Origin: an uncultured archaeon
GTDB lineage: Archaea; Aenigmatarchaeota; Aenigmatarchaeia; Aenigmatarchaeales; Aenigmatarchaeaceae
Direction of reading: 5' to 3'
DNA length: 49,808 nt
Assembly (NCBI GenBank): GCA_964347265.1
Contig: CAYFXV010000004.1
Location: 1-49,808, forward strand
Shown here in pieces: positions 4,116 to 49,333 of the stretch (position 1 is its first letter; each line of letters starts with the position of its first letter). The notes under the pieces were generated by a model. That model was not told where the DNA came from, made no database searches, and worked only from the letters and a program-made list of their open reading frames with translations. The position numbers and the translations under genes were made by a program.

Positions 4116-4127
4116 AGGTTGTTAATC

Positions 4128-4430
4128 ATGCCAATATATAGATTAACAGTTTTTGGAAAACAATCTCATGCATCAATGCCATGCTCAGGAGTAAATGCTA
4201 TCAGGTATGGAGCTAGATTAATATCAATGATGGAGATGCGCCTAGTGAGTATAGAGGGCGGACTTGCAGATAATATTATACCACCTTCATGTGAATTTAC
4301 TTTTAGTTCAGAAAAAAGTTTGAGAGAACTAAGAAAAAATGCTACAGAACAAATGGAAAAAATTAAAGAAGAGGGAGATAGATTAGTAAAAAAAAATTTG
4401 AGATATGAAATAGAATTATTGTATCCATGA
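4128..4430 (+). CDS. Small protein resembling an isolated M20 peptidase dimerisation domain
   Basis: GKQSHASMPCSGVNAI and IEGG..DNIIPPSCEF match the dimerisation-domain pattern of the M20 gene at 1-725; ATG 4128 preferred over TTG 4119. Confidence 0.6.
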   Translation: MPIYRLTVFGKQSHASMPCSGVNAIRYGARLISMMEMRLVSIEGGLADNIIPPSCEFTFSSEKSLRELRKNATEQMEKIKEEGDRLVKKNLRYEIELLYP

Positions 4431-4472
4431 GTTTATATAATTTTTATACTCTTAATTTCTATTAATCAATAT

Positions 4473-4547
4473 GCTCCTGTAGCTCAGTTTGGATAGAGCG
4501 GCTGCCTCCTAAGCAGTAGGTCGTGCGTTCAAATCGCACCAGGAGCA
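4473..4547 (+). tRNA. tRNA-Arg(CCT), intronless
   Basis: GCTCCTG/CAGGAGC acceptor, GCTGC-CT-CCT-AA-GCAGT anticodon arm, GTGCG-TTCAAAT-CGCAC T arm. Confidence 0.96.
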
Positions 4548-4581
4548 TTATTTTTTATATAAAACAACACGATAATTAATT

Positions 4582-5277
4582 ATGAAAAAAGAAAGAATAG
4601 AAACAGGAATCCCAGGAGTAGACAAATTAATAGGAGGAGGTCTATTGCCTCATTCTTTAACTTTATTAACAGGAACAACAGGAACAGGAAAAACTGTAAT
4701 GTCATCTCAATTCATTTATTTTGGAGTTAAAGAACATGATGCTCCTGGAGTTTACGTCAGTTTTGAAGAACCTGTAGATAATATAAGGAGAGATTGTTTG
4801 GATTTTGGTTGGGATTTTGAACCTTTAGAAAAGAGAAACAAAATTATTTTTGTTAGGTATGATCCTTTTCATGTTGAAGATATTTATGAGTTAATAGAAA
4901 CCAATGTTAAAAAGATAGGAGCAAAAAGAGTTGTTATAGATTCTATATCTGCTTTAGGTTTATATGTAAGAGATATTCCAGACATAAGAAGAATGGTATT
5001 TAACATATCATTGCTTTTAAGAAAATTAGGTTGTACATCAATTTTGATTTCTGAAACTTTGCCAATGCAAAATTCGTTATCAAGATTTGGAGTAGAGGAA
5101 TTTGTGACAGACAATGTTATTGTTTTATATTATACTAAGACAGGTTCTCAATTTTCAAGAGCGCTAACAATATGGAAAATGAGAGGTTCTGAACACTCAA
5201 ATAAGCTTCATCCTTATAGAATATCAAATAAAGGTGTTACAATATATAGTGAAGAAGAAGCATTTTCAAAACTTTAA
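4582..5277 (+). CDS. Single-domain KaiC-like (RAD55/GvpD) RecA-superfamily ATPase
   Basis: TGIPGVD, Walker A GTTGTGKT, YVSFEE, VVIDSI, IWKMRGSEH. Confidence 0.9.
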   Translation: MKKERIETGIPGVDKLIGGGLLPHSLTLLTGTTGTGKTVMSSQFIYFGVKEHDAPGVYVSFEEPVDNIRRDCLDFGWDFEPLEKRNKIIFVRYDPFHVEDIYELIETNVKKIGAKRVVIDSISALGLYVRDIPDIRRMVFNISLLLRKLGCTSILISETLPMQNSLSRFGVEEFVTDNVIVLYYTKTGSQFSRALTIWKMRGSEHSNKLHPYRISNKGVTIYSEEEAFSKL

Positions 5278-5308
5278 AGATATATATAAACTGTTCTAAA
5301 TTTATCTT

Positions 5309-6250
5309 ATGCCTAAAAGGACTAAGAAACACAGAACCAAAAAGCATATCAAGAAAATTAAGAAAGAAAAAGTAAAAGATTATCATTTTTTAAAGGTTCC
5401 AGCAATAAAACTTTTTGGTAGATCAGCAGATAAATATTCTGATTATTTTAATATAATAAAAACATCACTCCATAAGGCCGATGCAAAAATTTTATTTAGA
5501 ACTTATTTATCAATTATGTTCTTTCTCACGTCATTTGTTTTTGTTTTGTCACTCTTCTCTACTTTAGCATTTTCAATACATTTAGGTTTGAATATTTTAC
5601 AAACCATTTTAGGCTTGTTAATTTTACCAACTTTATTTTCTATTGTTACATTTCTTTCATATTATATTTATCCAATATCTTCGGCACAAAGAAGAAAAAA
5701 TGACATAGAATCAAATTTACCTTTTGCATTAAATCATATGTCAGCTATTGCAGGTTCTGGGGTTCCTCCAAGAGTCATGTTTAAAGTTATTTCAAGATTT
5801 AGGGAATATGGAGAAATTTCTAAAGAGGCGAACAAAATAAGAAGAAATGTCGAAGTTTTCGGTATGGATGAAATGACATCCATAAAAGAAGTTGCATCAA
5901 AATCTCCGTCACCACTCTTTAAAGACTTCTTACAAGGAATTCTAACAACAATTCAAACAGGAGGTAATCTTAACAATTTTTTAAAAGAAGAGGCTGAAAA
6001 AGCAATGTTTGATTATAGGATTAGAAGAAATAAGTACGTACAACAATTAACAATTTATGCAGATTTCTATACAGCATTGCTAATTGCAGCTCCTCTCATT
6101 TTCATAATAATGTTGCCTATTTTAAGTATAATGCAAGGAACCTTATTTGGATTTGGAATACATGAATTGATAAATCTTGGTTTAATCTCGCTTACAGTTT
6201 TAAATATAGGATTTTTAATATTCCTTCAATTAACTCAACCTAAAATGTGA
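5309..6250 (+). CDS. Type IV pilus membrane platform protein (T2SSF/TadC/ArlJ-like)
   Basis: IESNLPFALNHMSAIAGSG, YGEISKE, TGGNLNNFL, multiple TM segments. Confidence 0.88.
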   Translation: MPKRTKKHRTKKHIKKIKKEKVKDYHFLKVPAIKLFGRSADKYSDYFNIIKTSLHKADAKILFRTYLSIMFFLTSFVFVLSLFSTLAFSIHLGLNILQTILGLLILPTLFSIVTFLSYYIYPISSAQRRKNDIESNLPFALNHMSAIAGSGVPPRVMFKVISRFREYGEISKEANKIRRNVEVFGMDEMTSIKEVASKSPSPLFKDFLQGILTTIQTGGNLNNFLKEEAEKAMFDYRIRRNKYVQQLTIYADFYTALLIAAPLIFIIMLPILSIMQGTLFGFGIHELINLGLISLTVLNIGFLIFLQLTQPKM

Positions 6251-6254
6251 TTTA

Positions 6255-7061
6255 ATGAAAAAATCAAACCTCTTAATGAAAATAACATTGTTAACTACTC
6301 TAATAGGAATTTCACTTGCTATTTTAAATTTGATTTTGTTATCATCATTCACTTTAAGCGTAGTTTCTATTGTTATTATACCAATAGGTCCTTTTGTTTA
6401 TCAATATAGAAAATACAAAGAAAATAAAGAGATTGAAGAGAGATTTCCAGATTTTTTAAGAGATGTAGCACAAAACATAAGAACAGGAATGACAATACCT
6501 CAAGCAATAAAAGCAACAAAAGGTACTTATTATGGAGCATTAAGTCCTTATGTTGGAAAAATGATTGTTCAAATAGACTGGGGAGTCCCTTTTAATAAGA
6601 TTCTTACAGACTTTGCAAACAACACAACTAAATCTTTGAGAAGAACTGTTTTAACAATAATAGATACTCATAAAGGTGGAGGCGATATCGCCGACATATT
6701 TGATTCTGTTGGTAAAAGTATTATTGAAATTAATAGAATAAATAAAGAACGCTATTCTGTAATTTATAACCAAATGTTAACAGGATACATAATTTTCTTT
6801 GTTTTCATAGGAGTTTTAATTATGATGCAAATATATTTGATTCCAAGCTTACAAACCTTTGCTGCTCCAGAGGTTGGAATCTCAACTTTTGAACAGCTTG
6901 GCGGTTTTTATGCTAATGTTTTCAGGATACTTATAATATTACAAGGATTTTTCTCCGGTTTAGTTATAGGTAAATTATCTGAAGGTAGTACAATATCAGG
7001 CTTAAAGCACTCTATACTTTTAGTTATTATAGGTTCTCTTGCGCTTTGGGCTTTCATATAG
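6255..7061 (+). CDS. Second type IV pilus membrane platform protein (T2SSF/TadC-like)
   Basis: IEERFPDFLRDVAQNIRTGMT, YGALSP, GGDIADIF, QGFFSGLVIGKLSEG. Confidence 0.88.
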   Translation: MKKSNLLMKITLLTTLIGISLAILNLILLSSFTLSVVSIVIIPIGPFVYQYRKYKENKEIEERFPDFLRDVAQNIRTGMTIPQAIKATKGTYYGALSPYVGKMIVQIDWGVPFNKILTDFANNTTKSLRRTVLTIIDTHKGGGDIADIFDSVGKSIIEINRINKERYSVIYNQMLTGYIIFFVFIGVLIMMQIYLIPSLQTFAAPEVGISTFEQLGGFYANVFRILIILQGFFSGLVIGKLSEGSTISGLKHSILLVIIGSLALWAFI

Positions 7062-7092
7062 ATTTTTATTGTGGGTTAATCTACCATTTATT

Positions 7093-7503
7093 ATGAAAGC
7101 ACTTTATCCACCATTATCATACACACTTTTTATTGTAATCAGTATCGCTGCTTTATCTATTATATTAATAATAGTAAACACTTTTTCAGAAAATATACAA
7201 AGAAATTATGCTTATGGTCAATTAAATTATATAGCAGAAGTTATAAGACAAGATATTTTAAAATTGTACTCTACAAATGCTGAAGGAAGATTAGAATTAT
7301 CTATTCCTAAAGATATTATTGGAAAACAATATTTGATAGAGCTAGATCAAAAAAATTTAAAATTAAGTCTTGAATTTAAAGACGAAAGAATAGAAGTAGA
7401 ACGTTTTATAAATACTAGTGCTTCTTTAAGTGGAAGATTTTTCGCACCAGTTTCAATTGAAATGAATAAAACAAATGGAGACATTTCTATAAAGTTGGTT
7501 TAA
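7093..7503 (+). CDS. Pilin-like protein
   Basis: MKA followed by hydrophobic N-terminal helix (class III signal-like); lies in pilus cluster; ATG 7093 preferred. Confidence 0.65.
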   Translation: MKALYPPLSYTLFIVISIAALSIILIIVNTFSENIQRNYAYGQLNYIAEVIRQDILKLYSTNAEGRLELSIPKDIIGKQYLIELDQKNLKLSLEFKDERIEVERFINTSASLSGRFFAPVSIEMNKTNGDISIKLV

Positions 7504-8214
7504 ATGAGTCATATAGATTTTGCAATAGGTTTTGTTTTAATAATCTCAACAATATTTTTAATAATTTATTTTACTTCGAATTCTATATCAAATAATGTTA
7601 ATGATTTAAGTGTAAATGAAATTAAAGAATCTTCTTTATCTTTAGAAAAATATTTGTTTGAAATAAGTGATGATAAAAGTTTAATTTCAACTTTTAGAGA
7701 ACTTCAAACAATTCTAACTGAAGTTAATGATACAGATCATAGTGAAGAAATAAGAATATCAATAAAACCAGATGTTAGCAAAGTTAAAGTTTATGATAAT
7801 TTAATGAATGAAATCCCTTCAACATCTTCCCAATTAGTAGGAGAAACTGTTTTATCCTTTTTGCAAGATTTTACTGCAAACGAAGAGAAAAGTATTGGCA
7901 TATATTATTTTGGGGATGCAGTTGTGGATATTGATTATCTTTCTACTGAAAATAATATAAGTCTTAGAATACTCTCTAATAAAGAATTAAATGTGGTCTC
8001 TCAAGAAAAATGTTCTAATTTTAAAAGCAAATCTTATGAATATATTAAAGAAGATTTTGGTTTTCAAAATCAATTCAGACTAGATTTAGATGGTTGTAGT
8101 TACGGTCCAGAACCATCACTAACAGCAAATATAATACTTAAAAATATTCCCGTACTTTCTGAAAATTCTGATGGTTTGTTAAGAGCTAAAATTGCTAGGT
8201 TGAGAATATGGTAA
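7504..8214 (+). CDS. Pilin-like / pilus accessory protein
   Basis: N-terminal hydrophobic helix MSHIDFAIGFVLIISTIFLIIYF; coupled to neighbouring genes. Confidence 0.6.
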   Translation: MSHIDFAIGFVLIISTIFLIIYFTSNSISNNVNDLSVNEIKESSLSLEKYLFEISDDKSLISTFRELQTILTEVNDTDHSEEIRISIKPDVSKVKVYDNLMNEIPSTSSQLVGETVLSFLQDFTANEEKSIGIYYFGDAVVDIDYLSTENNISLRILSNKELNVVSQEKCSNFKSKSYEYIKEDFGFQNQFRLDLDGCSYGPEPSLTANIILKNIPVLSENSDGLLRAKIARLRIW

Positions 8215-8585
8215 TGAAAGGTTATGTTAAAACATTAGAAGCTGGAATTGCAATTATCTTAATTTTAATTTCAATGGTATTTTTATTTCCTGAAAAAACA
8301 AAAACCGAACCTCAAATCTCAGATGTAGGTTATAATTGTTTAAAATATTTAGATTATGGCAAGTCTTTAAGATATTATGCAGTAAATGATTTTGAATCCG
8401 ATTTGATTAATGATTTACGGAGTTGTTTACCTCCAATACTAAATTATACAGCAAAAATATGTACCACTACTCTTTGTAATACTGAACTTCCCTCAGATAA
8501 AACAGTCTTTTTATCAAGTTACTTAATAAGTGGAGAAGATTCTATTAACCCAGTTTTAATTAATCTTTGGGTTTGGTCAACATGA
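8214..8585 (+). CDS. Minor pilin-like protein
   Basis: MKG/YVKTLEA plus hydrophobic helix; TAATG overlap with upstream gene. Confidence 0.7.
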   Translation: MKGYVKTLEAGIAIILILISMVFLFPEKTKTEPQISDVGYNCLKYLDYGKSLRYYAVNDFESDLINDLRSCLPPILNYTAKICTTTLCNTELPSDKTVFLSSYLISGEDSINPVLINLWVWST

Positions 8586-8950
8586 AGGGACAAATTTTTA
8601 TAATGGCTGCAGTGTTAGTTTTAATAGCATTAATTTTGCTCAGAAATGCAATACAATCAATTGAAATTAAACCTAAGAATCTTCTTTATGAAAATTTTGT
8701 TAATTTAAAAAATGAATTAATTAAGACAGTAGACCTATCAATCTTAAATCAAGAAGATATTACAACAAATTTGAATAATTTTATAACATTTTCTACAAAT
8801 GTTCTTGAGCAAAGAGACTATGATGAAACTGTTGTATTTGAAATTTTTACTTATGGTAATACTACTGAAGTTTATATGAACATTTCCCTTAAACTAGAAA
8901 ATTCATTTATAGAAGATAAATTTATAATTAACAGGACGGTTTATTCATGA
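8582..8950 (+). CDS. Minor pilin-like protein
   Basis: MKG/QIFIMAAVLVLIALILL class III signal; ATGA overlap. Confidence 0.75.
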   Translation: MKGQIFIMAAVLVLIALILLRNAIQSIEIKPKNLLYENFVNLKNELIKTVDLSILNQEDITTNLNNFITFSTNVLEQRDYDETVVFEIFTYGNTTEVYMNISLKLENSFIEDKFIINRTVYS

Positions 8951-10434
8951 AAGGAATTGATACCTTAATAGCGGCAGTTTTTATTATTTTAATTTCTATA
9001 GTGGGTATTATAATTGTTTTAGAAACCAGCCAATCTTCTATCGGAAGATTAGAAGAAATAAGTTTGATGGAAGAGGGTCGAGATATTTTAACTCAAATAG
9101 ATAACGCTGTTAGAGATGTTGCACAACAAGGTGAAGGATCAAGCAGAGTGTTGACAATTAGTGTAAGTGGTGGAAATTATTTTATAGACACAGAAAATGA
9201 AGCTGTTGTCTTTTCTATGTCTAGCCATTCCCAAATACTTGGTGTAGGTATTTCTAAAACTGAAGGAAACATAAACATGTTCGGAGAAATAAATAGAGTT
9301 TTTTTGAATATATCACATTCTAATGTAAATATTACTGAGGGAGGTAGATTCGGAAGGGGATATCATAATTTATTTATAAGAAACAATGGCTATGATTTTG
9401 CAAATCAAAAACAGATAATTAGTATATCATTAATACCAGTGTTGCCTCCAACTGCTATAACAGTTCAATTCAATCAGTCCGGTTCACCACTTATAGTGAG
9501 CGGAATTTATTTCAGTGGGTCTGCAGATGATTTAAACACTTTAGGTGAAGGAAGTACATACGATGTTGAAGAGGAGGGCTCAGTTTTTGGTGAATCACAG
9601 TATGCAAGACCAAGTTCTGATTTTTCAACAGGAAATTGGTTGGATTATCTATACAGTGAACCACTTTATGATGATATAGACGAGATTACAGTAGATGATG
9701 CTGATTATATTCAATCATCAATTAATCCTTCAGTTGATGTTTGTGATATAGGACTTTCATCTGTTACAGATCCCGAAGTTCATACAGGACATATTGTCAG
9801 ATATAGATATGCAGCAGTAATGTCAGGAACAGGTAAACCATCAGAAATAGATTTAGTAGTTAGACTCATGGAAGGCACTACTGAAATAGCAAGTTGGTCG
9901 CACAGTAATTTAGCTGGCGACCTTCCATTTGTAACATCAACACAAACACTTACGGAAGAACAAGCAAGTCTAATTTCAGATTATTCAAATTTAAGATTAA
10001 GATTCATAGCAAACAGGGTTGGAAGAGGTACAAGAGATATCTGGATTGAAATTTCATGGACAGAATTTGAGATTCAAGGCGAAGAAATTAATTATGAAGT
10101 AGAGGTTTGGCATAATTCTACTCCAATTAGCTATTCTGGAAATTTATACAGTATTAATGTTACTGTTAATTTCACAACTAATTTTTTTGACACATACTCT
10201 TTGCAAATTTATGATTGGACAAATTTACAATGGACTTCTACAGGTTGTGGTTCAGGTGATGTTCAACCAGACACACCAACACAATGGTGGTGTACTGAAA
10301 ATATTGACCCTATGAACTACAATTCTTCTGATAATATAGTAAGGATTAGAATTAAATCAACTGCTGATTCAGATCAAGGAACTTTAAAAGAAGATTACAT
10401 ACAATATTTTGTTAATTATATTCCACCTTCATAG
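8947..10434 (+). CDS. Large minor pilin / putative adhesin
   Basis: MKG/IDTLIAAVFIILISIVGIIIV class III signal; acidic, beta-rich C-terminal domains. Confidence 0.75.
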   Translation: MKGIDTLIAAVFIILISIVGIIIVLETSQSSIGRLEEISLMEEGRDILTQIDNAVRDVAQQGEGSSRVLTISVSGGNYFIDTENEAVVFSMSSHSQILGVGISKTEGNINMFGEINRVFLNISHSNVNITEGGRFGRGYHNLFIRNNGYDFANQKQIISISLIPVLPPTAITVQFNQSGSPLIVSGIYFSGSADDLNTLGEGSTYDVEEEGSVFGESQYARPSSDFSTGNWLDYLYSEPLYDDIDEITVDDADYIQSSINPSVDVCDIGLSSVTDPEVHTGHIVRYRYAAVMSGTGKPSEIDLVVRLMEGTTEIASWSHSNLAGDLPFVTSTQTLTEEQASLISDYSNLRLRFIANRVGRGTRDIWIEISWTEFEIQGEEINYEVEVWHNSTPISYSGNLYSINVTVNFTTNFFDTYSLQIYDWTNLQWTSTGCGSGDVQPDTPTQWWCTENIDPMNYNSSDNIVRIRIKSTADSDQGTLKEDYIQYFVNYIPPS

Positions 10435-10447
10435 AAACCTTTATATG
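10434..10447 (+). promoter_or_regulatory. BRE-TATA promoter of major pilin (probably leaderless mRNA)
   Basis: GAAACC-TTTATATG ending 24 nt before ATG 10471; no SD motif. Confidence 0.6.
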
Positions 10448-10470
10448 CAGAGTTTTGCAATTTTTATAAC

Positions 10471-10902
10471 ATGAAAGGAATATCTCCAATTATAGCATCG
10501 GTTTTGTTAATTGCAATAACTATGAGTATTGCTGTTGTTTTGGCAGCCTATGTTACTACTTATACTAGAGAGGCTACAGAAGCTATACCATCAGCTTGTA
10601 TTGGTGGAGCACTGTTCTTTACAGAAACTTCTCCAACATATGATTCAGGAACTTGTGAGATCACCGCAGGTATAGAAGCACAATTTGTTGATTTAAATGG
10701 TTTTGTGGTTCAAACTGACAGAGGTGGAGTTATAAGTAATCAACCAACTACAGGCGTTACAGAATTAGATGCAGGTGATGCTGGAACAGTATATGCAGAT
10801 TTAGGAATTTCACCATGTCCAACAGATGTAGATTATGTCAGAGTTACGACAGCAAATTGTTTCAATGTTAGAACAGCTTGGGCAGCACCAACAGTAGTTT
10901 AA
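10471..10902 (+). CDS. Archaeal type IV pilin (probable major pilin)
   Basis: Canonical MKG/ISPIIASVLLIAITMSIAVVL N-terminus; 4 Cys; own promoter. Confidence 0.9.
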   Translation: MKGISPIIASVLLIAITMSIAVVLAAYVTTYTREATEAIPSACIGGALFFTETSPTYDSGTCEITAGIEAQFVDLNGFVVQTDRGGVISNQPTTGVTELDAGDAGTVYADLGISPCPTDVDYVRVTTANCFNVRTAWAAPTVV

Positions 10903-15039: not shown

Positions 15040-15149
15040 AGCCCCGTAGTGTAGCGGCCAAGCACACAGGGCTTTGGTCATAAGACTAAAGCATTGAGCT
15101 TTGCTATGAAAGAAACCCTGTAACGCAGGTTCGAATCCTGCCGGGGCTA
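15040..15149 (+). tRNA. tRNA-Gln(TTG) with 37-nt intron (15078-15114) at 37/38
   Basis: A1-U72 acceptor AGCCCCG/CGGGGCT; CAGGG/CCCTG stem; BHB helix CTTT/AAAG and outer CATA/TATG. Confidence 0.93.
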
Positions 15150-16757: not shown

Positions 16758-18947
16758 ATGGCAAAGGAAGAATATAGTGAAAAAGTACAAGAATTGATGA
16801 ATAATCCAAAGAATATCAGAAATATTGGTATTGTTTCTCATATTCATCATGGTAAAACTACTCTAACCGATAACTTAGCTGCTGCAGCAGGATTGATGGC
16901 TAGAGATTTAGTTGGAGAAAGAATGTTAACATGGATTGATGATCAAGAAAGAGAAAGATTAATGACAATTTATGGTGCAACAGTTACAATGTCTCATGAT
17001 TATGGGGGTGAAAGATACTTAATAAATCTTTTAGACACACCAGGACATGTTGATTTTGGTGCTGATGTTACTCAAGCTATGAGAGCTGTAGACGGAGCTG
17101 TAGTTCTTTGCTGTGCAGTTGAGGGTGTAATGCCACAAACAGAAACTGTTTTAAGACAAGCAATAGCAGAAAGAGTTAAACCTGTTTTATTTATTAATAA
17201 AGTTGACAGAGCAATAAGAGAACTAAAATTAACATCTGAACAATTGCAAAAAAGACTAGCAAAAATTGTTGTTGATGTTAATAAGTTTATTCAAAGACAT
17301 GTTGAAAAACAATATGCTAAAGATTGGGTAGTAAAAGTTGAAGATGGTTCTGTTGCATTTGGTTCAGCTTTGAAAAAATGGGCAATTTCTGTTCCTTTCA
17401 TGGAAAGGACAGGAGTAACATTTAAAGATATAATTGATTTATGCTCTCAAGAAAAAAATGAGGAATTAGCAGACAAAGCTCCAATGCATATTGTTGTTTT
17501 AGATATGGTTATTAAACACTTGCCAAATCCTCTAGAGGCTCAAGCTTACAGAATAGAAAGAATTTGGGAGGGTGATGTTAACTCAGAAATCGGTAAACAA
17601 TTAGTTAACTGCGATCCAAATGGAAAATTAGCTGCAGTTATAACTAAAATTACTTCTGATCCGCATGCTGGCATGATATCAACTTCAAGAATTTTTTCTG
17701 GTAAATTAACTAAAGGACAGAATATACATTTTGTTGATACTGGAAGAACTGCAAAAACTCAACAAGTTACAACATTTATTGCTTTAAGAAGGATACCAGT
17801 TGAGTATGCGCTTGCAGGAAATGTTGTTGGTATAGTTGGTTTATCAGAAGCTGCTGTTGGTCAAACAATAACTGAACCAGATTTTTCATTAGAAACTTTT
17901 AAAGCTATAAAACATATTTTTGAGCCAGTTGTTACAAAATCAATTGAACCTAAACATCCACAAGATTTACCCAAATTAATAGAAATCCTTAAAACATTAA
18001 GTAGAGAAGATACTACATTAAAAGTTAAAATAAATCCAGAAACTGGAGAAACTTTAGTTTCGGGTTTAGGTGAACTACATTTAGATGCAAAAGTTGAAAG
18101 GAAAATTAAAGAAAAAGGAATAGAAATTATAGCTTCGCCACCCATTGTTGTTTATAGGGAAAGTATTTTTTCCAATTCTCCTGTTATAGAAGGAAAATCT
18201 CCAAACAAACATAATAAATTTTATATTTCTGTTGAACCTCTTCCAAAAGAGATTTACAAAGTAATGACAGAAGGAGAAATAAGAGATGGAGAAATAAAAG
18301 GAAAGAATCTGGAATTAAGAAAGAGATTACAGGAATTAGGAATGAGTAAATCAGATGCAAAAGATTTAATTTTAATTCATAATCACTGTATGTTTTTAGA
18401 CTGTACAAAAGGTATTCAATATTTAAATGAAGCTATGGAAAATATAAAGGCTGCATTTATAAAAGTTATGGATGGAGGCCCTTTAGCACAAGAACCTTGT
18501 GCAGCTGTTATTGTTAGGTTGCATGATGCTGAATTGCATGAAGATGCTGTTCACAGAGGACCAGCACAGATTATGCCATCCATTCGTCGTCCAATTAATC
18601 AAGGCATGTTAAAAGCAGGTACTAGTTTTCTAGAACCCAGACAAATAATCAGGATAGATACTCCACAGGATTATATAGGAAATGTGACTGCTGAAGTTGG
18701 GAACAGGAGAGGAGAAATTCTAAATGTTGAACAAGAAGAATACACAGCAATTGTTACAGCCAAAGTTCCTGTTGCTGAAATGTTTGGTTTTGAAGGTGCT
18801 TTGAAGTCTGCTACAGGCGGTAAAGGCTTTCAATCTTTAATGGATGTTATGTTCGAGAAAATACCAAATGACCTAAGAGACCAGGTTGCTTTAAAAATTA
18901 GAGAAAGAAAAGGAATGCCTAAAGAAATTCCTAAATCTGAAATCTAA
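16758..18947 (+). CDS. fusA: Elongation factor aEF-2
   Basis: [34 protein letters not shown], diphthamide motif [11 protein letters not shown]. Confidence 0.96.
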
Positions 18948-40003: not shown

Positions 40004-40930
40004 ATGGGTTGGCTAATAAAAAAACATGAAGCATCATTAACACCTTTTGGTTGTTATCCTGGTGCAAGAAGTTTAGAAGAACATATAAAAAATGGAATAA
40101 TAATTTTAGACAAACCTCCAGGACCAACTTCTCATAATGTTGATAAATGGATTAAAGATATATTAGAAGTAAAAAAATGCTCACATGGAGGCACATTAGA
40201 TCCAAGGGTTTCAGGAGTTCTAGTAATAGCATTAGAAAATGCAACAAAATTAATGCCAATTCTCTTATCATCTAAAAAAGAATATATAGGAATAATTAAC
40301 CTTCATGAGGAAGTTGAAAAGAAAAAAATTGAAAAAGCATTCAAAAGTTTTATTGGAAAAATTAAACAAATACCTCCTAAAAAATCTGCTGTTGCTAGAA
40401 AAGAAAGGGAAAGAGAAGTTTATTATTTAGAACTATTAGAACTAAAAGAAAGAAAGATCTTATTTAAAATTGGTTGCGAAGCTGGGTTCTATGTTAGAAG
40501 ATTTGCAGATGATTTAGGAAAGGAACTAGGAACAGGAGCACATTTACAGGAATTGAGAAGAACAAAAAGTGGAAATTTTTTTGAAGGATCTGCAATAACT
40601 TTACAAGATTTAGTTGATGCTAAAGAGGAAAATAGACTAAAAGAAGTTGTACTTCCTATGGAATTAGTTGCTGAAAACATAGGAAAAATAATAGTATCAG
40701 ATAATGCTATAGATAATATTTGTAATGGAGCACCTTTGGCTATTGGGGGAATTGTTAGATTTGAAGACAATATAAAAAAAAGACAATGGGTTGCTTTATT
40801 TTCTTTGAAAGGTGAGTTAATAGCTATTGGAAAAGCTCTAATGAATTCTGAAATGATATTAAATAAGAAAAGAGATTTGGCAGTTAAAACTGATAGGGTT
40901 CTAATGAAAAAAGGAACTTATCCAAAATAA
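40004..40930 (+). CDS. cbf5: H/ACA pseudouridine synthase Cbf5 (TruB family, PUA domain)
   Basis: LDKPPGPTSH, HGGTLDPRVSGVL, AHLQELRRTKSG, PUA domain, KTDRVLM..GTYP. Confidence 0.96.
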   Translation: MGWLIKKHEASLTPFGCYPGARSLEEHIKNGIIILDKPPGPTSHNVDKWIKDILEVKKCSHGGTLDPRVSGVLVIALENATKLMPILLSSKKEYIGIINLHEEVEKKKIEKAFKSFIGKIKQIPPKKSAVARKEREREVYYLELLELKERKILFKIGCEAGFYVRRFADDLGKELGTGAHLQELRRTKSGNFFEGSAITLQDLVDAKEENRLKEVVLPMELVAENIGKIIVSDNAIDNICNGAPLAIGGIVRFEDNIKKRQWVALFSLKGELIAIGKALMNSEMILNKKRDLAVKTDRVLMKKGTYPK

Positions 40931-45248: not shown

Positions 45249-45434
45249 ATGGTAGCTAGAAGAAGAAAAACAAGAAGAAAGACAAAAAGAAAGAAAAAAG
45301 CTTTCGGTGGTTATAGAATACATCCAGATGAACACTTAGAAAAGATAGTTGGTAAGAAACCAATAACACCATCTGAAATGACTAAAAAAATATGGTCACA
45401 TATTAGAAGAAAGAAGCTTGGAAAGAAAAAATAA
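45249..45434 (+). CDS. Small basic protein with SWIB/MDM2-like domain
   Basis: AGGTGA SD; Arg/Lys tail then HPDEHLEKIVGKKPITPSEMTKKIWSHIRRKKL. Confidence 0.75.
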   Translation: MVARRRKTRRKTKRKKKAFGGYRIHPDEHLEKIVGKKPITPSEMTKKIWSHIRRKKLGKKK

Positions 45435-45504
45435 TATAATTTTCCATAAAAGAATTTAGTAATTTCTTTAAGATTTAAAAATATCCAATTCTTAATCTAA
45501 ATAT

Positions 45505-45695
45505 GCCGTCGTGGCAGAACCAGGTAAATGCGCCAGAATCGTCTCAAGTTTTGATTTTGAGATGATAGCGATACTTGAGACAGATGATATTATGGCTTGA
45601 CTCTGAAATGCGGCGTAATGAAGAGTAAAAAGTAAAGTGATGTCGAGTTATCTGGTGCCCGAAAGGGCTTGCAGGTTCAAATCCTGCCGACGGCG
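45505..45695 (+). tRNA. tRNA-Ser(TGA) with two introns: 45537-45572 (30/31, 36 nt) and 45580-45649 (37/38, 70 nt)
   Basis: GCCGTCG/CGACGGC acceptor, G73, long variable arm GCCC-GAAA-GGGC; removing both introns restores CCAGA-CT-TGA-GA-TCTGG. Confidence 0.85.
45580..45649 (+). ncRNA. Putative box C/D guide sRNA encoded in tRNA-Ser intron 2
   Basis: ACA/TGT terminal stem; C ATGATAT 45584-90; 12 nt; D' CTGA 45603-06; C' ATGAAGA 45618-24; 12 nt; D GTGA 45637-40. Confidence 0.7.
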
Positions 45696-45728
45696 CTTCT
45701 TTTTAAGTGGGAAATCAAATAAAATTAT

Positions 45729-46079
45729 ATGGTAATGTTAGCACAGATTATCCCATTTTCAATATACGGAATCATTCCTATTGTTATTCAAATTTTATTC
45801 AGTACTATAACAGCTTGGTTAAGTGCGCAACTTGTAATAGGCGGTGCAAGATTACAGAATGCACTTATATATGCTTTAATAACTTACTTTGTCGTTTATT
45901 TAGTGGTATTAGTTCCCATACCAGCTATTCCTGTTATCAATACTATAGTCCTTGTTGAAGCACTACTAAAAATCTTCGTTGCCATGAAATTTTTTAATAC
46001 AGACTTTCGTGGAGGATTATCTATAGCAGGAGTTCAGATACTTCTTGGAACTATAATTAGTATACCCTTTTATTTTTAA
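45729..46079 (+). CDS. Membrane protein of unknown function (about 4 TM)
   Basis: Hydrophobic ORF downstream of tRNA-Ser. Confidence 0.7.
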   Translation: MVMLAQIIPFSIYGIIPIVIQILFSTITAWLSAQLVIGGARLQNALIYALITYFVVYLVVLVPIPAIPVINTIVLVEALLKIFVAMKFFNTDFRGGLSIAGVQILLGTIISIPFYF

Positions 46080-49200: not shown

Positions 49201-49333
49201 GCGGAGGTAGCCAAGTCTGGTCTAAGGCGCAGGACTTAAGATCGGACTCTTAAGTTTTGATGCAAGTAAATCTTGCTATGATAAGAAATCCTGTGGGTTA
49301 GTCCCTTCGTCGGTTCAAATCCGGCCCTCCGCA
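49201..49333 (+). tRNA. tRNA-Leu(TAA) with 47-nt intron (49241-49287) at 37/38
   Basis: GCGGAGG/CCTCCGC acceptor, A73, long variable arm, CAGGA/TCCTG stem, BHB helix CTTA/TAAG. Confidence 0.93.

Follow-up and report, generated by a model that had tools for sequence, protein, structure and literature searches.

The window analysed here, a 49,808-nt stretch of DNA from an uncultured archaeon, carries at positions 45505–45695 of the forward strand a tRNA-Ser(UGA) gene that is interrupted by two introns separated by an exon of 7 nt, as established by direct reading, by folding and by the DNA of relatives. We consider it very probable (roughly 85%) that this is a functional gene of Candidatus Aenigmatarchaeota (DPANN) whose two-intron transcript is spliced as proposed below. 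Its parts are as follows:

45474–45484, forward strand: TATA-like box TTTAAAAATAT, a putative promoter ∼27 nt upstream of the tRNA 5′ end
45505–45536, forward strand: exon 1, tRNA positions 1–30 (acceptor 5′ strand, D arm and CCAG, the first four nucleotides of the anticodon stem)
45537–45572, forward strand: intron 1, 36 nt, at the non-canonical position 30/31, with a relaxed bulge-helix-bulge (BHB) motif of the HBh′ type
45573–45579, forward strand: micro-exon ACUUGAG, positions 31–37 (last anticodon-stem nucleotide, C32, U33, the anticodon UGA and G37)
45580–45649, forward strand: intron 2, 70 nt, at the canonical position 37/38
45650–45695, forward strand: exon 3, positions 38–73 (A38, anticodon-stem 3′ strand, long variable arm, T arm, acceptor 3′ strand and G73)
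45700–45704, forward strand: T5 run seen by direct reading, a likely transcription stop

Even unspliced, the gene is a class II tRNA that is complete but for a contiguous anticodon arm. By direct reading, we identified an acceptor stem (GCCGTCG 45505–11 with CGACGGC 45688–94) followed by the discriminator G73 at 45695, a D stem of 3 bp, a T-arm stem GCAGG/CCTGC and a long variable arm (45657–68, GCCC-GAAA-GGGC) with a 4-bp stem; exon 3 ends without an encoded CCA. The two strands of the anticodon stem, CCAGA at 45533–37 and TCTGG at 45651–55, lie 113 nt apart. Removing 45537–72 and 45580–649 in silico left 85 nt that ARAGORN called as tRNA-Ser(tga), showing the cloverleaf with a long variable arm, the G73 and the Ser anticodon of a class II Ser tRNA. 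All relatives share a TTTAAAAAT or TTAAAAA element at the same upstream distance, and their genes likewise end in T-runs downstream.

Both junctions could be mapped on relatives, of which pattern scans retrieved 20 loci, 4 from genomes and 16 from metagenomes (given L numbers below). Metagenome DNA contigs from three independent marine-sediment runs contained the joints 45536>45573, skipping 36 nt, and 45579>45650, skipping 70 nt, each with the expected 1-nt A/A ambiguity. Both introns were carried by 12 genes, counting the window's own as well as L015 and L020, which are cut off at contig ends. Seven loci (L002, L004, L006, L008, L012, L013 and L019) retained intron 2 and joined ...GCGCCAG straight to ACTTGAG, and the MAFFT gap fell on exactly these intron-1 columns. 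Among the seven, L013 is a syntenic orthologue: its flanking genes are the same, its identity is ∼90%, and exactly the 36 nt are missing. Joints skipping only intron 2 came from runs X3 and X4, where relatives' DNA contigs, laid on window positions 45440–45760, are without exactly intron 2. The gene contains two introns, each of which is missing from some alleles. One further X4 contig, lacking intron 1, differs in its anticodon stem (GCGC-TAGC-CTTGAG).

The exact position of the first junction was further supported by covariation. In L018, the 3′ stem strand reads GCTGG and the micro-exon starts with C, so that C31:G39 covaries; since nucleotide 31 can come only from the micro-exon, this places the junction at 30/31. 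The pair 31:39 was A:U in 12 sequences and C:G in 1. Indeed, every cloverleaf pair was kept (100%) across the 13 distinct sequences, with compensatory changes at 5:68, at 31:39 and in the variable arm.

The earlier note on this DNA had proposed a tRNA-Ser(UGA) with two introns and a 7-nt micro-exon, and had predicted that standard scanners might miscall it. The coordinates that it gave and the 113-nt gap between the stem strands all agreed with our direct reading, the comparative DNA and the ARAGORN call on the spliced sequence strongly support the assignment, and the scanners behaved as foreseen. ARAGORN in default mode did not detect the unspliced gene, nor did the Rfam tRNA model, either at its gathering score or in a lax scan of the whole window; applied locally, this model scored the T arm alone, at 14 bits. 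Rfam detected the one-intron relatives at 41–45 bits and missed the two-intron forms except L018. In its intron mode, ARAGORN miscalled the gene as Thr(agt), the anticodon being split by a 106-nt intron. We give such a single-intron Thr(AGU) gene practically no credence: the long variable arm and the G73 mark a class II Ser tRNA, the model needs an intron at 35/36 within the anticodon without a BHB motif, and it is ruled out by the one-intron relatives, where the loop CUUGAGA is contiguous with the stem. Alternative anticodon loops, CTTGACT at 45596–602 and TTTGAGA at 45556–62, are ruled out by the ACTTGAG that directly follows the stem in the same relatives; alternative loops inside the insert also give an abnormal C37 or an unpaired 31:39.

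For the splice sites we used a BHB geometry with a 4-bp central helix, 3-nt bulges and a cut (arrows below) after the second bulge nucleotide. It was calibrated on the introns of the window's tRNA-Gln(UUG) and tRNA-Leu(UAA) genes, both of which were recovered exactly, as perfect hBHBh′ motifs. In intron 2, the central helix proposed by the earlier note, CUUG/CGAG, was found at 45574–77 (positions 32–35) and 45644–47; the 3′ bulge is UU↓A, and the 5-bp anticodon stem serves as outer helix as soon as exon 1 adjoins the micro-exon. The central helix is a perfect CUUG/CAAG in most relatives, among them L002, L004, L005, L011 and L016. In L002 and L005 the 5′ bulge has 3 nt, and a strict hBHBh′ scan of the intron-1-free sequence found intron 2. 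In the window's lineage, this bulge measures 2–3 nt (AG↓A, the A being able to pair), which gives either a 2-nt bulge or an unpaired U45643. Intron 2 is thus a BHB intron with a slightly relaxed 5′ bulge in this lineage, a feature that the earlier note did not describe.

The relaxed motif at 30/31 that the same note had given for intron 1, CGCC/AGCG with one mismatch, was also read directly, its site being fixed by the comparative DNA. Its central helix consists of C45531:G45570, G45532:C45569 and C45533:G45568 plus a C45534·A45567 mismatch (CGCC 45531–34 / AGCG 45567–70), the bulges are A-G↓A (5′) and A-U↓A (3′), and a 10-bp hairpin joining 45538–47 to 45557–66 (−11.3 kcal/mol) forms the inner helix. 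With the 5′ bulge AG↓A lying between helix and hairpin, intron 1 fits, by its sequence, the relaxed HBh′ class; it does not satisfy the strict hBHBh′ definition, and the relaxed scan alone found the motif. Among the carriers, the central helix contains a G·U in L005 and L011 and is a perfect 4 bp (CGCC/GGCG) in L018. Helix and hairpin are kept in 8 distinct carriers, with 88% of the hairpin cells paired across the intron-1 carriers and one compensatory pair. Scanned strictly for BHB motifs, the unspliced window gene yielded neither intron and gave chance candidates only.

Several observations weigh against splicing as we propose it. The outer helix of intron 1 is virtually absent (G45530:C45574, then a mismatch), and its central helix contains the C·A mismatch. 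Even after removal of intron 1, intron 2 of the window fails the strict hBHBh′ scan, because its 5′ bulge is one nucleotide short. The one related metatranscriptome contig, from X23, is unspliced; as it extends 65 nt beyond the tRNA 3′ end and may be DNA, it is uninformative on splicing. Finally, a second, intact Ser(UGA) gene may lie elsewhere in the genome. In that case, the window copy could be a pseudogene disabled by a 36-bp insertion, with the other gene supplying tRNA-Ser(UGA). The relaxed motif of intron 1, the failure of standard scanners to accept the gene and the fact that the genome beyond the window is unseen would all fit such a pseudogene. It is nevertheless very improbable, given that at least 8 distinct lineages, up to ∼18% diverged, have preserved the insertion together with its hairpin and helix, that the exons are perfectly tRNA-like with compensatory changes, that promoter box and T-run are retained, and that the two-intron form is the sole form in the apparent source samples (depth 44–65). 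Archaeal genomes, small DPANN ones in particular, seldom carry redundant tRNA genes, which likewise counts against a pseudogene.

We therefore return to a functional gene, which would be transcribed into a precursor of ∼191 nt. The two adjoining BHB motifs would offer four sites to the endonuclease EndA, and an RtcB-type ligase would join exons of 32, 7 and 46 nt into the 85-nt class II tRNA; judged from the motifs, such EndA/RtcB processing of all four sites into three joined exons is the most likely route. Intron 2 would be the ancestral canonical 37/38 intron, long because a box C/D small RNA (sRNA)-like module (see below) is nested inside it, with the terminal stem of the module doubling as inner helix of the splicing motif. 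Intron 1 is a 36-nt hairpin intron with a relaxed motif that occurs in some lineages and is precisely absent from close relatives. The micro-exon between them is made up of 1 nt of the intron-1 3′ bulge, the 4-nt strand of the intron-2 helix and 2 nt of the intron-2 5′ bulge, and is therefore the shortest exon that two abutting motifs allow. The intron 2 helix could also act as the missing flanking helix for the 3′ bulge of intron 1. Ordered splicing and a broad-specificity endonuclease, as suggested by the earlier note, have precedent and are plausible by analogy. Among the 30 window open reading frames (ORFs), Pfam scans detected neither EndA nor fibrillarin nor Nop5; the remainder is mostly a ribosomal-protein cluster.

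Where the earlier note went too far was in letting the intron 2 motif form only after intron 1 has been removed: CCAG/CUGG together with A31:U39 can form with intron 1 as a hairpin branch. The central helix of intron 1 takes C25 from the D stem, G26, and C27–C28 from the anticodon stem, so that for these nucleotides the splicing fold and the cloverleaf are mutually exclusive. With C27–C28 claimed by intron 1, two conformations compete, and either order of removal or a composite fold is possible. An obligatory order, in which intron 1 is excised first and the anticodon stem then becomes the outer helix of intron 2, is a real contender, although we lean somewhat away from it. As long as intron 1 is present, the outer helix of intron 2 amounts to 1 bp (A31:U39) followed by a 36-nt branch, both motifs compete for C27–C28, and the intron-1-free sequence of L002 and L005 offers a perfect strict motif for intron 2; tRNAscan-SE 2.0 also starts from the premise that certain introns lying close together must be removed one after the other (PMC8450103). 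However, a CCAG/CUGG stem formed around the intron 1 hairpin would present the intron 2 bulges, and when intron 2 was removed in silico, the minimum free energy (MFE) fold retained the helix and hairpin of intron 1, which makes the reverse order feasible. Moreover, a composite fold with the intron 2 central helix flanking the 3′ bulge of intron 1 would present three of the four sites together. Any such order scheme is a model built on sequence and folding, and the MFE folds of the whole precursor, which are not cloverleaf-like, do not settle it. The D-loop CCAGGUAA (45520–45527) is complementary over 8 bp to UUAUCUGG (45648–45655), which comprises the intron 2 3′ splice site and stem strand; this helix is used in the RNAfold MFE structure of the full precursor, would mask that splice site and is partly conserved in relatives.

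Beyond what the earlier note had described, intron 2 contains a box C/D architecture, and it looks, by sequence, like the carrier of a small methylation-guide RNA. The module and its elements are:

45580–45643, forward strand: box C/D sRNA-like module in the order C, 12 nt, D′, loop, C′, 12 nt, D
45580–82 and 45641–43, forward strand: terminal stem ACA/UGU, 3 bp, abutting the splice site
45584–90, forward strand: C box AUGAUAU, deviating at C6/C7
45591–602, forward strand: 12-nt spacer from C to D′, putative guide UAUGGCUUGACU
45603–06, forward strand: D′ box CUGA, exact consensus
45607–17, forward strand: 11-nt loop, varying among relatives
45618–24, forward strand: C′ box AUGAAGA, with one deviation
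45625–36, forward strand: 12-nt spacer from C′ to D, varying among relatives
45637–40, forward strand: D box GUGA, deviating at D1

The box order was correct in 17/17 relatives and the 12 + 12 nt spacing was kept in 15/17, the D spacer being shortened in L005 and L018. C boxes (AUGAUnn) and D boxes (RUGA) keep their GA/UGA cores and deviate at C6/C7 and D1; across the box table of 17 relatives, C-box position 6 and D-box position 1 mostly form U:A, which replaces the usual G:C. A generic C/D pattern occurred once in the window versus in none of 100 shuffles, and was present in 14 loci; as the pattern was defined post hoc, the shuffle result is only indicative. Independently, RNAalifold recovered the terminal stem as well as an ACUCU/AGAGU stem beside the C′/D′ boxes. 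The sequence permits a kink-turn (k-turn) built from the ACA/UGU stem, a 3-nt GAU bulge, G86·A40, A87·G39 (last two digits of the window positions) and a U·U, pairs that hardly vary and so provide no proof by covariation. On the k-loop side, the ACUCU/AGAGU stem adjoins GA/GA. Most conserved is the D′ spacer AUGGCUUGACU, with 11/12 nt invariant in all relatives (∼18% divergence), whereas the loop and the D spacer vary.

If the module guides methylation, targets 5′-AGUCAAGCCAU-3′ and 5′-UUUGCCUAUCAC-3′ would be expected in 16S rRNA, 23S rRNA or tRNAs, and the perfect target predicted for the D′ spacer is 5′-AGUCAAGCCAUA-3′. This guide reading is weakened by a number of findings. Boxes C and D are off consensus (AUGAUAU and GUGA). 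A search of the host tRNA, the window and the 20 loci for spacer targets, with G·U and one mismatch allowed, was negative: besides the opposite strand of the gene itself, it matched a chance site at 17070 in the EF-2 coding sequence, and nothing else. RNAalifold also pairs the two spacers partly with each other. Rfam returned only sub-threshold matches, to Afu_298 (17.1 bits, gathering score 40) and sR17 (11.1 bits, gathering score 36), although Rfam C/D families are guide-specific and a mismatch to their covariance models is therefore a weak test. Regarding the host itself, the best pairings of the spacers to mature tRNA-Ser are broken by several mismatches, the D′ spacer runs in the sense of the anticodon loop (CUUGA) rather than being complementary to it, and self-targeting of the tRNA-Trp type, at host positions 34 and 39, was not found. 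None of the fetched loci contained rRNA. With E. coli rRNA as a proxy, we found no convincing target; the best match to this proxy, which is not the rRNA of this lineage, was a contiguous 10-bp duplex with one G·U at E. coli 16S 1193–1202.

The intron 2 core could alternatively be a structured hairpin, stabilised by L7Ae and the k-turn, that helps to present the BHB motif and does not guide methylation. We regard this as possible, though less likely than not. A hairpin without guide function would account for the missing complementarity to host tRNA, window, loci and E. coli rRNA proxy, for the decay of the D spacer in the window lineage, L005, L018 and L019, and for the RNAalifold pairing of GCUUG in the D′ spacer with the D spacer; by direct reading, CUUGAC at 45596–601 can also pair in cis with GUCGAG at 45642–47, the 3′ end of the intron. 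It is at odds, however, with the exact 12-nt spacers on both sides in 15/17 relatives, with the correct box order, with a D′ spacer that is invariant at 11 nt over ∼18% divergence next to a varying loop, and with the maintenance of a pair at C6:D1 (mostly U:A) that is normally made by G:C. The absence of a target also counts for little, since the rRNA searched was the E. coli proxy and not that of this lineage.

We next considered the origin of intron 1, which is homologous in all carriers. In a rough neighbour-joining tree built from the exons and intron 2, the intron-1-free genes fell in at least three separate places, and the two most divergent genes, L018 and L005, carry intron 1. This scatter of intron-1-free genes and the divergent carriers favour ancestral presence with repeated precise loss, a conclusion that we draw with low confidence from a short alignment. 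Alleles without intron 2 also exist. The intron itself resembles its surroundings: read as reverse complement, its 5′ arm TCTCAAGT exactly matches the micro-exon extended by one nucleotide (ACTTGAGA), and its 3′ arm repeats the TTGA...GATGATA of the boundary between micro-exon and intron-2 C box (45537–45572 versus 45573–45590). In L018, the corresponding repeat (371–404 versus 405–425) is 15/16 identical, with a shared lineage-specific A-run (shuffle p ∼0.0005). All carriers have the GATGATA unchanged, and it looks like a second C box. These repeats could be due to an origin by local duplication, to concerted evolution or to a functional alternative pairing. That intron 1 was recently born from local sequence, by inverted and direct duplication of the anticodon-loop region, and then repeatedly and precisely lost, seems unlikely to us. 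If it were so, Aenigmatarchaeota populations would capture the creation, or the concerted evolution, of a tRNA intron together with its loss, and the choice between splicing conformations might be affected by a C/D ribonucleoprotein (RNP) on intron 2.

Sugahara et al. reportedly described, in 2007/2008, archaeal tRNA genes that hold several introns, non-canonical BHB introns among them. The locus brings known features together in a host tRNA and a phylum that are new for them. Thermoproteales, Thaumarchaeota and ARMAN are well known for tRNAs with several introns, non-canonical ones included (PMC4033280, PMC8450103, PMC3239211), closely spaced archaeal tRNA introns have been described and handled by iterative removal (PMC8450103), and relaxed motifs have been linked to EndA variants with specific loops, including the L3 loop of DPANN lineages (PMC5829648). 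Like those genes, the Ser(UGA) gene has two endonuclease-type introns, one at 37/38 and one non-canonical with a relaxed HBh′-like motif, so close together that their motifs interfere and standard scanners fail. It differs from them in its host, an Aenigmatarchaeota (DPANN) member, in an inter-intron exon that is at the geometric minimum (1 + 4 + 2 nt), and in the C/D-like module of its canonical intron.

Guide-like elements inside tRNA introns also have counterparts. As summarised in PMC4090602, the tRNA-Trp intron of Euryarchaeota nests a box C/D sRNA (Omer 2000; Clouet d'Orval 2001; Singh 2004). Both that intron and intron 2 are long (∼65–70 nt), lie at the canonical position and carry C, D′, C′ and D boxes beside the BHB motif. 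Here, however, the host is Ser(UGA) and the spacers are not complementary to the exons of the host tRNA, so the Cm34/Um39 self-targeting paradigm is not applicable. Closer in phylogeny is Nanoarchaeum equitans, where a 66-nt tRNA-Met intron holds a stable RNA resembling a C/D box sRNA (Randau 2012, PMC3491384). The two cases share a DPANN host, an unusually long intron at the canonical position, C/D elements with a non-consensus box and an uncertain target; they differ in host tRNA and phylum, in the second intron found here, and in that the N. equitans intron is a stable RNA by RNA-seq, whereas ours is known from sequence alone. The intron polymorphism, finally, recalls a natural Caldiarchaeum population with heterogeneity in the presence of a tRNA-Thr(GGU) intron (Sugahara 2012, PMC3293823). 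In both instances, close environmental relatives differ by one extra non-canonical intron in an orthologous tRNA gene; in Caldiarchaeum the extra intron was accompanied by a 1.8-kb mobile element that encodes a recombinase, whereas here the difference is a clean 36-bp indel with synteny kept and no mobile element visible.

The practical value of the locus lies in the annotation of DPANN genomes, and its specialist interest is moderate. DPANN genomes often seem to be without tRNAs; as this gene is invisible to ARAGORN and to the Rfam tRNA model, Ser(UGA) would score as missing in these metagenome-assembled genomes (MAGs). The locus also defines the minimal exon permitted by two abutting BHB motifs, and its natural alleles (both introns, intron 2 only, and contigs without intron 2) are clean material for studying the gain and loss of tRNA introns. 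From the relaxed 30/31 motif, we would predict a broad-specificity EndA in Aenigmatarchaeota. If the C/D module is active, tRNA-Ser would be the third known tRNA host of an intronic guide RNA, and one whose guide does not target its own tRNA.

The assignment of the gene to Aenigmatarchaeota, which belong to the kingdom Nanobdellati (DPANN), is in line with the genomes that matched: 2/4 matching species-representative genomes are Candidatus Aenigmatarchaeota MAGs, and one Aenigmatarchaeota MAG, WVXN01 (L001), matches L013 without a difference where the two overlap and shares ∼93% identity with the window. The window has a G+C content of 30%, and its genes include archaeal ribosomal proteins, EF-2, RpoD, MAT and Cbf5. 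The last of these, at 40004–40930, is a Cbf5-type pseudouridine synthase (DKCLD, TruB_N and PUA domains), the catalytic subunit of H/ACA guide RNPs; its presence points to L7Ae-dependent guide-RNP machinery in the organism.

Interrupted tRNA genes are common in the window, with 3/5 affected. Both calibration genes were missed by default ARAGORN: Gln(UUG), at 15040–15149, contains a 37-nt canonical intron (15078–15114), and Leu(UAA), at 49201–49333, a canonical intron of 47 nt (49241–49287), each with a perfect hBHBh′ motif. Both introns end in ...GCTATGA(A/T)AAGAA, and each has an internal copy of its own anticodon-loop sequence.

Directly upstream of the Ser(UGA) gene, 45249–45434 encodes a very basic 61-aa ORF that is conserved and syntenic in L010 and L013 and weakly matches the SWI/SWIB-like C-terminal domain of topoisomerase fusion proteins. 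At the other end of the window, the ORFs 27–725 and 4119–4430 each match the peptidase M20 dimerisation domain and flank a HisRS gene and a PIN/ATPase/KH gene; they might represent one gene that was duplicated or broken up, and the second is found just upstream of tRNA-Arg(CCU) (4472–4548). A type-IV-pilus/archaellum-like cluster follows at 4582–10902, with a KaiC-like ATPase, two T2SSF-family membrane proteins, a DUF7266 protein, an archaeal type IV pilin and several ORFs without a family. Among the relatives, L016 carries an archaeal signal recognition particle (SRP) RNA at 415–687 (136 bits), ∼11 kb from its Ser(UGA) gene.

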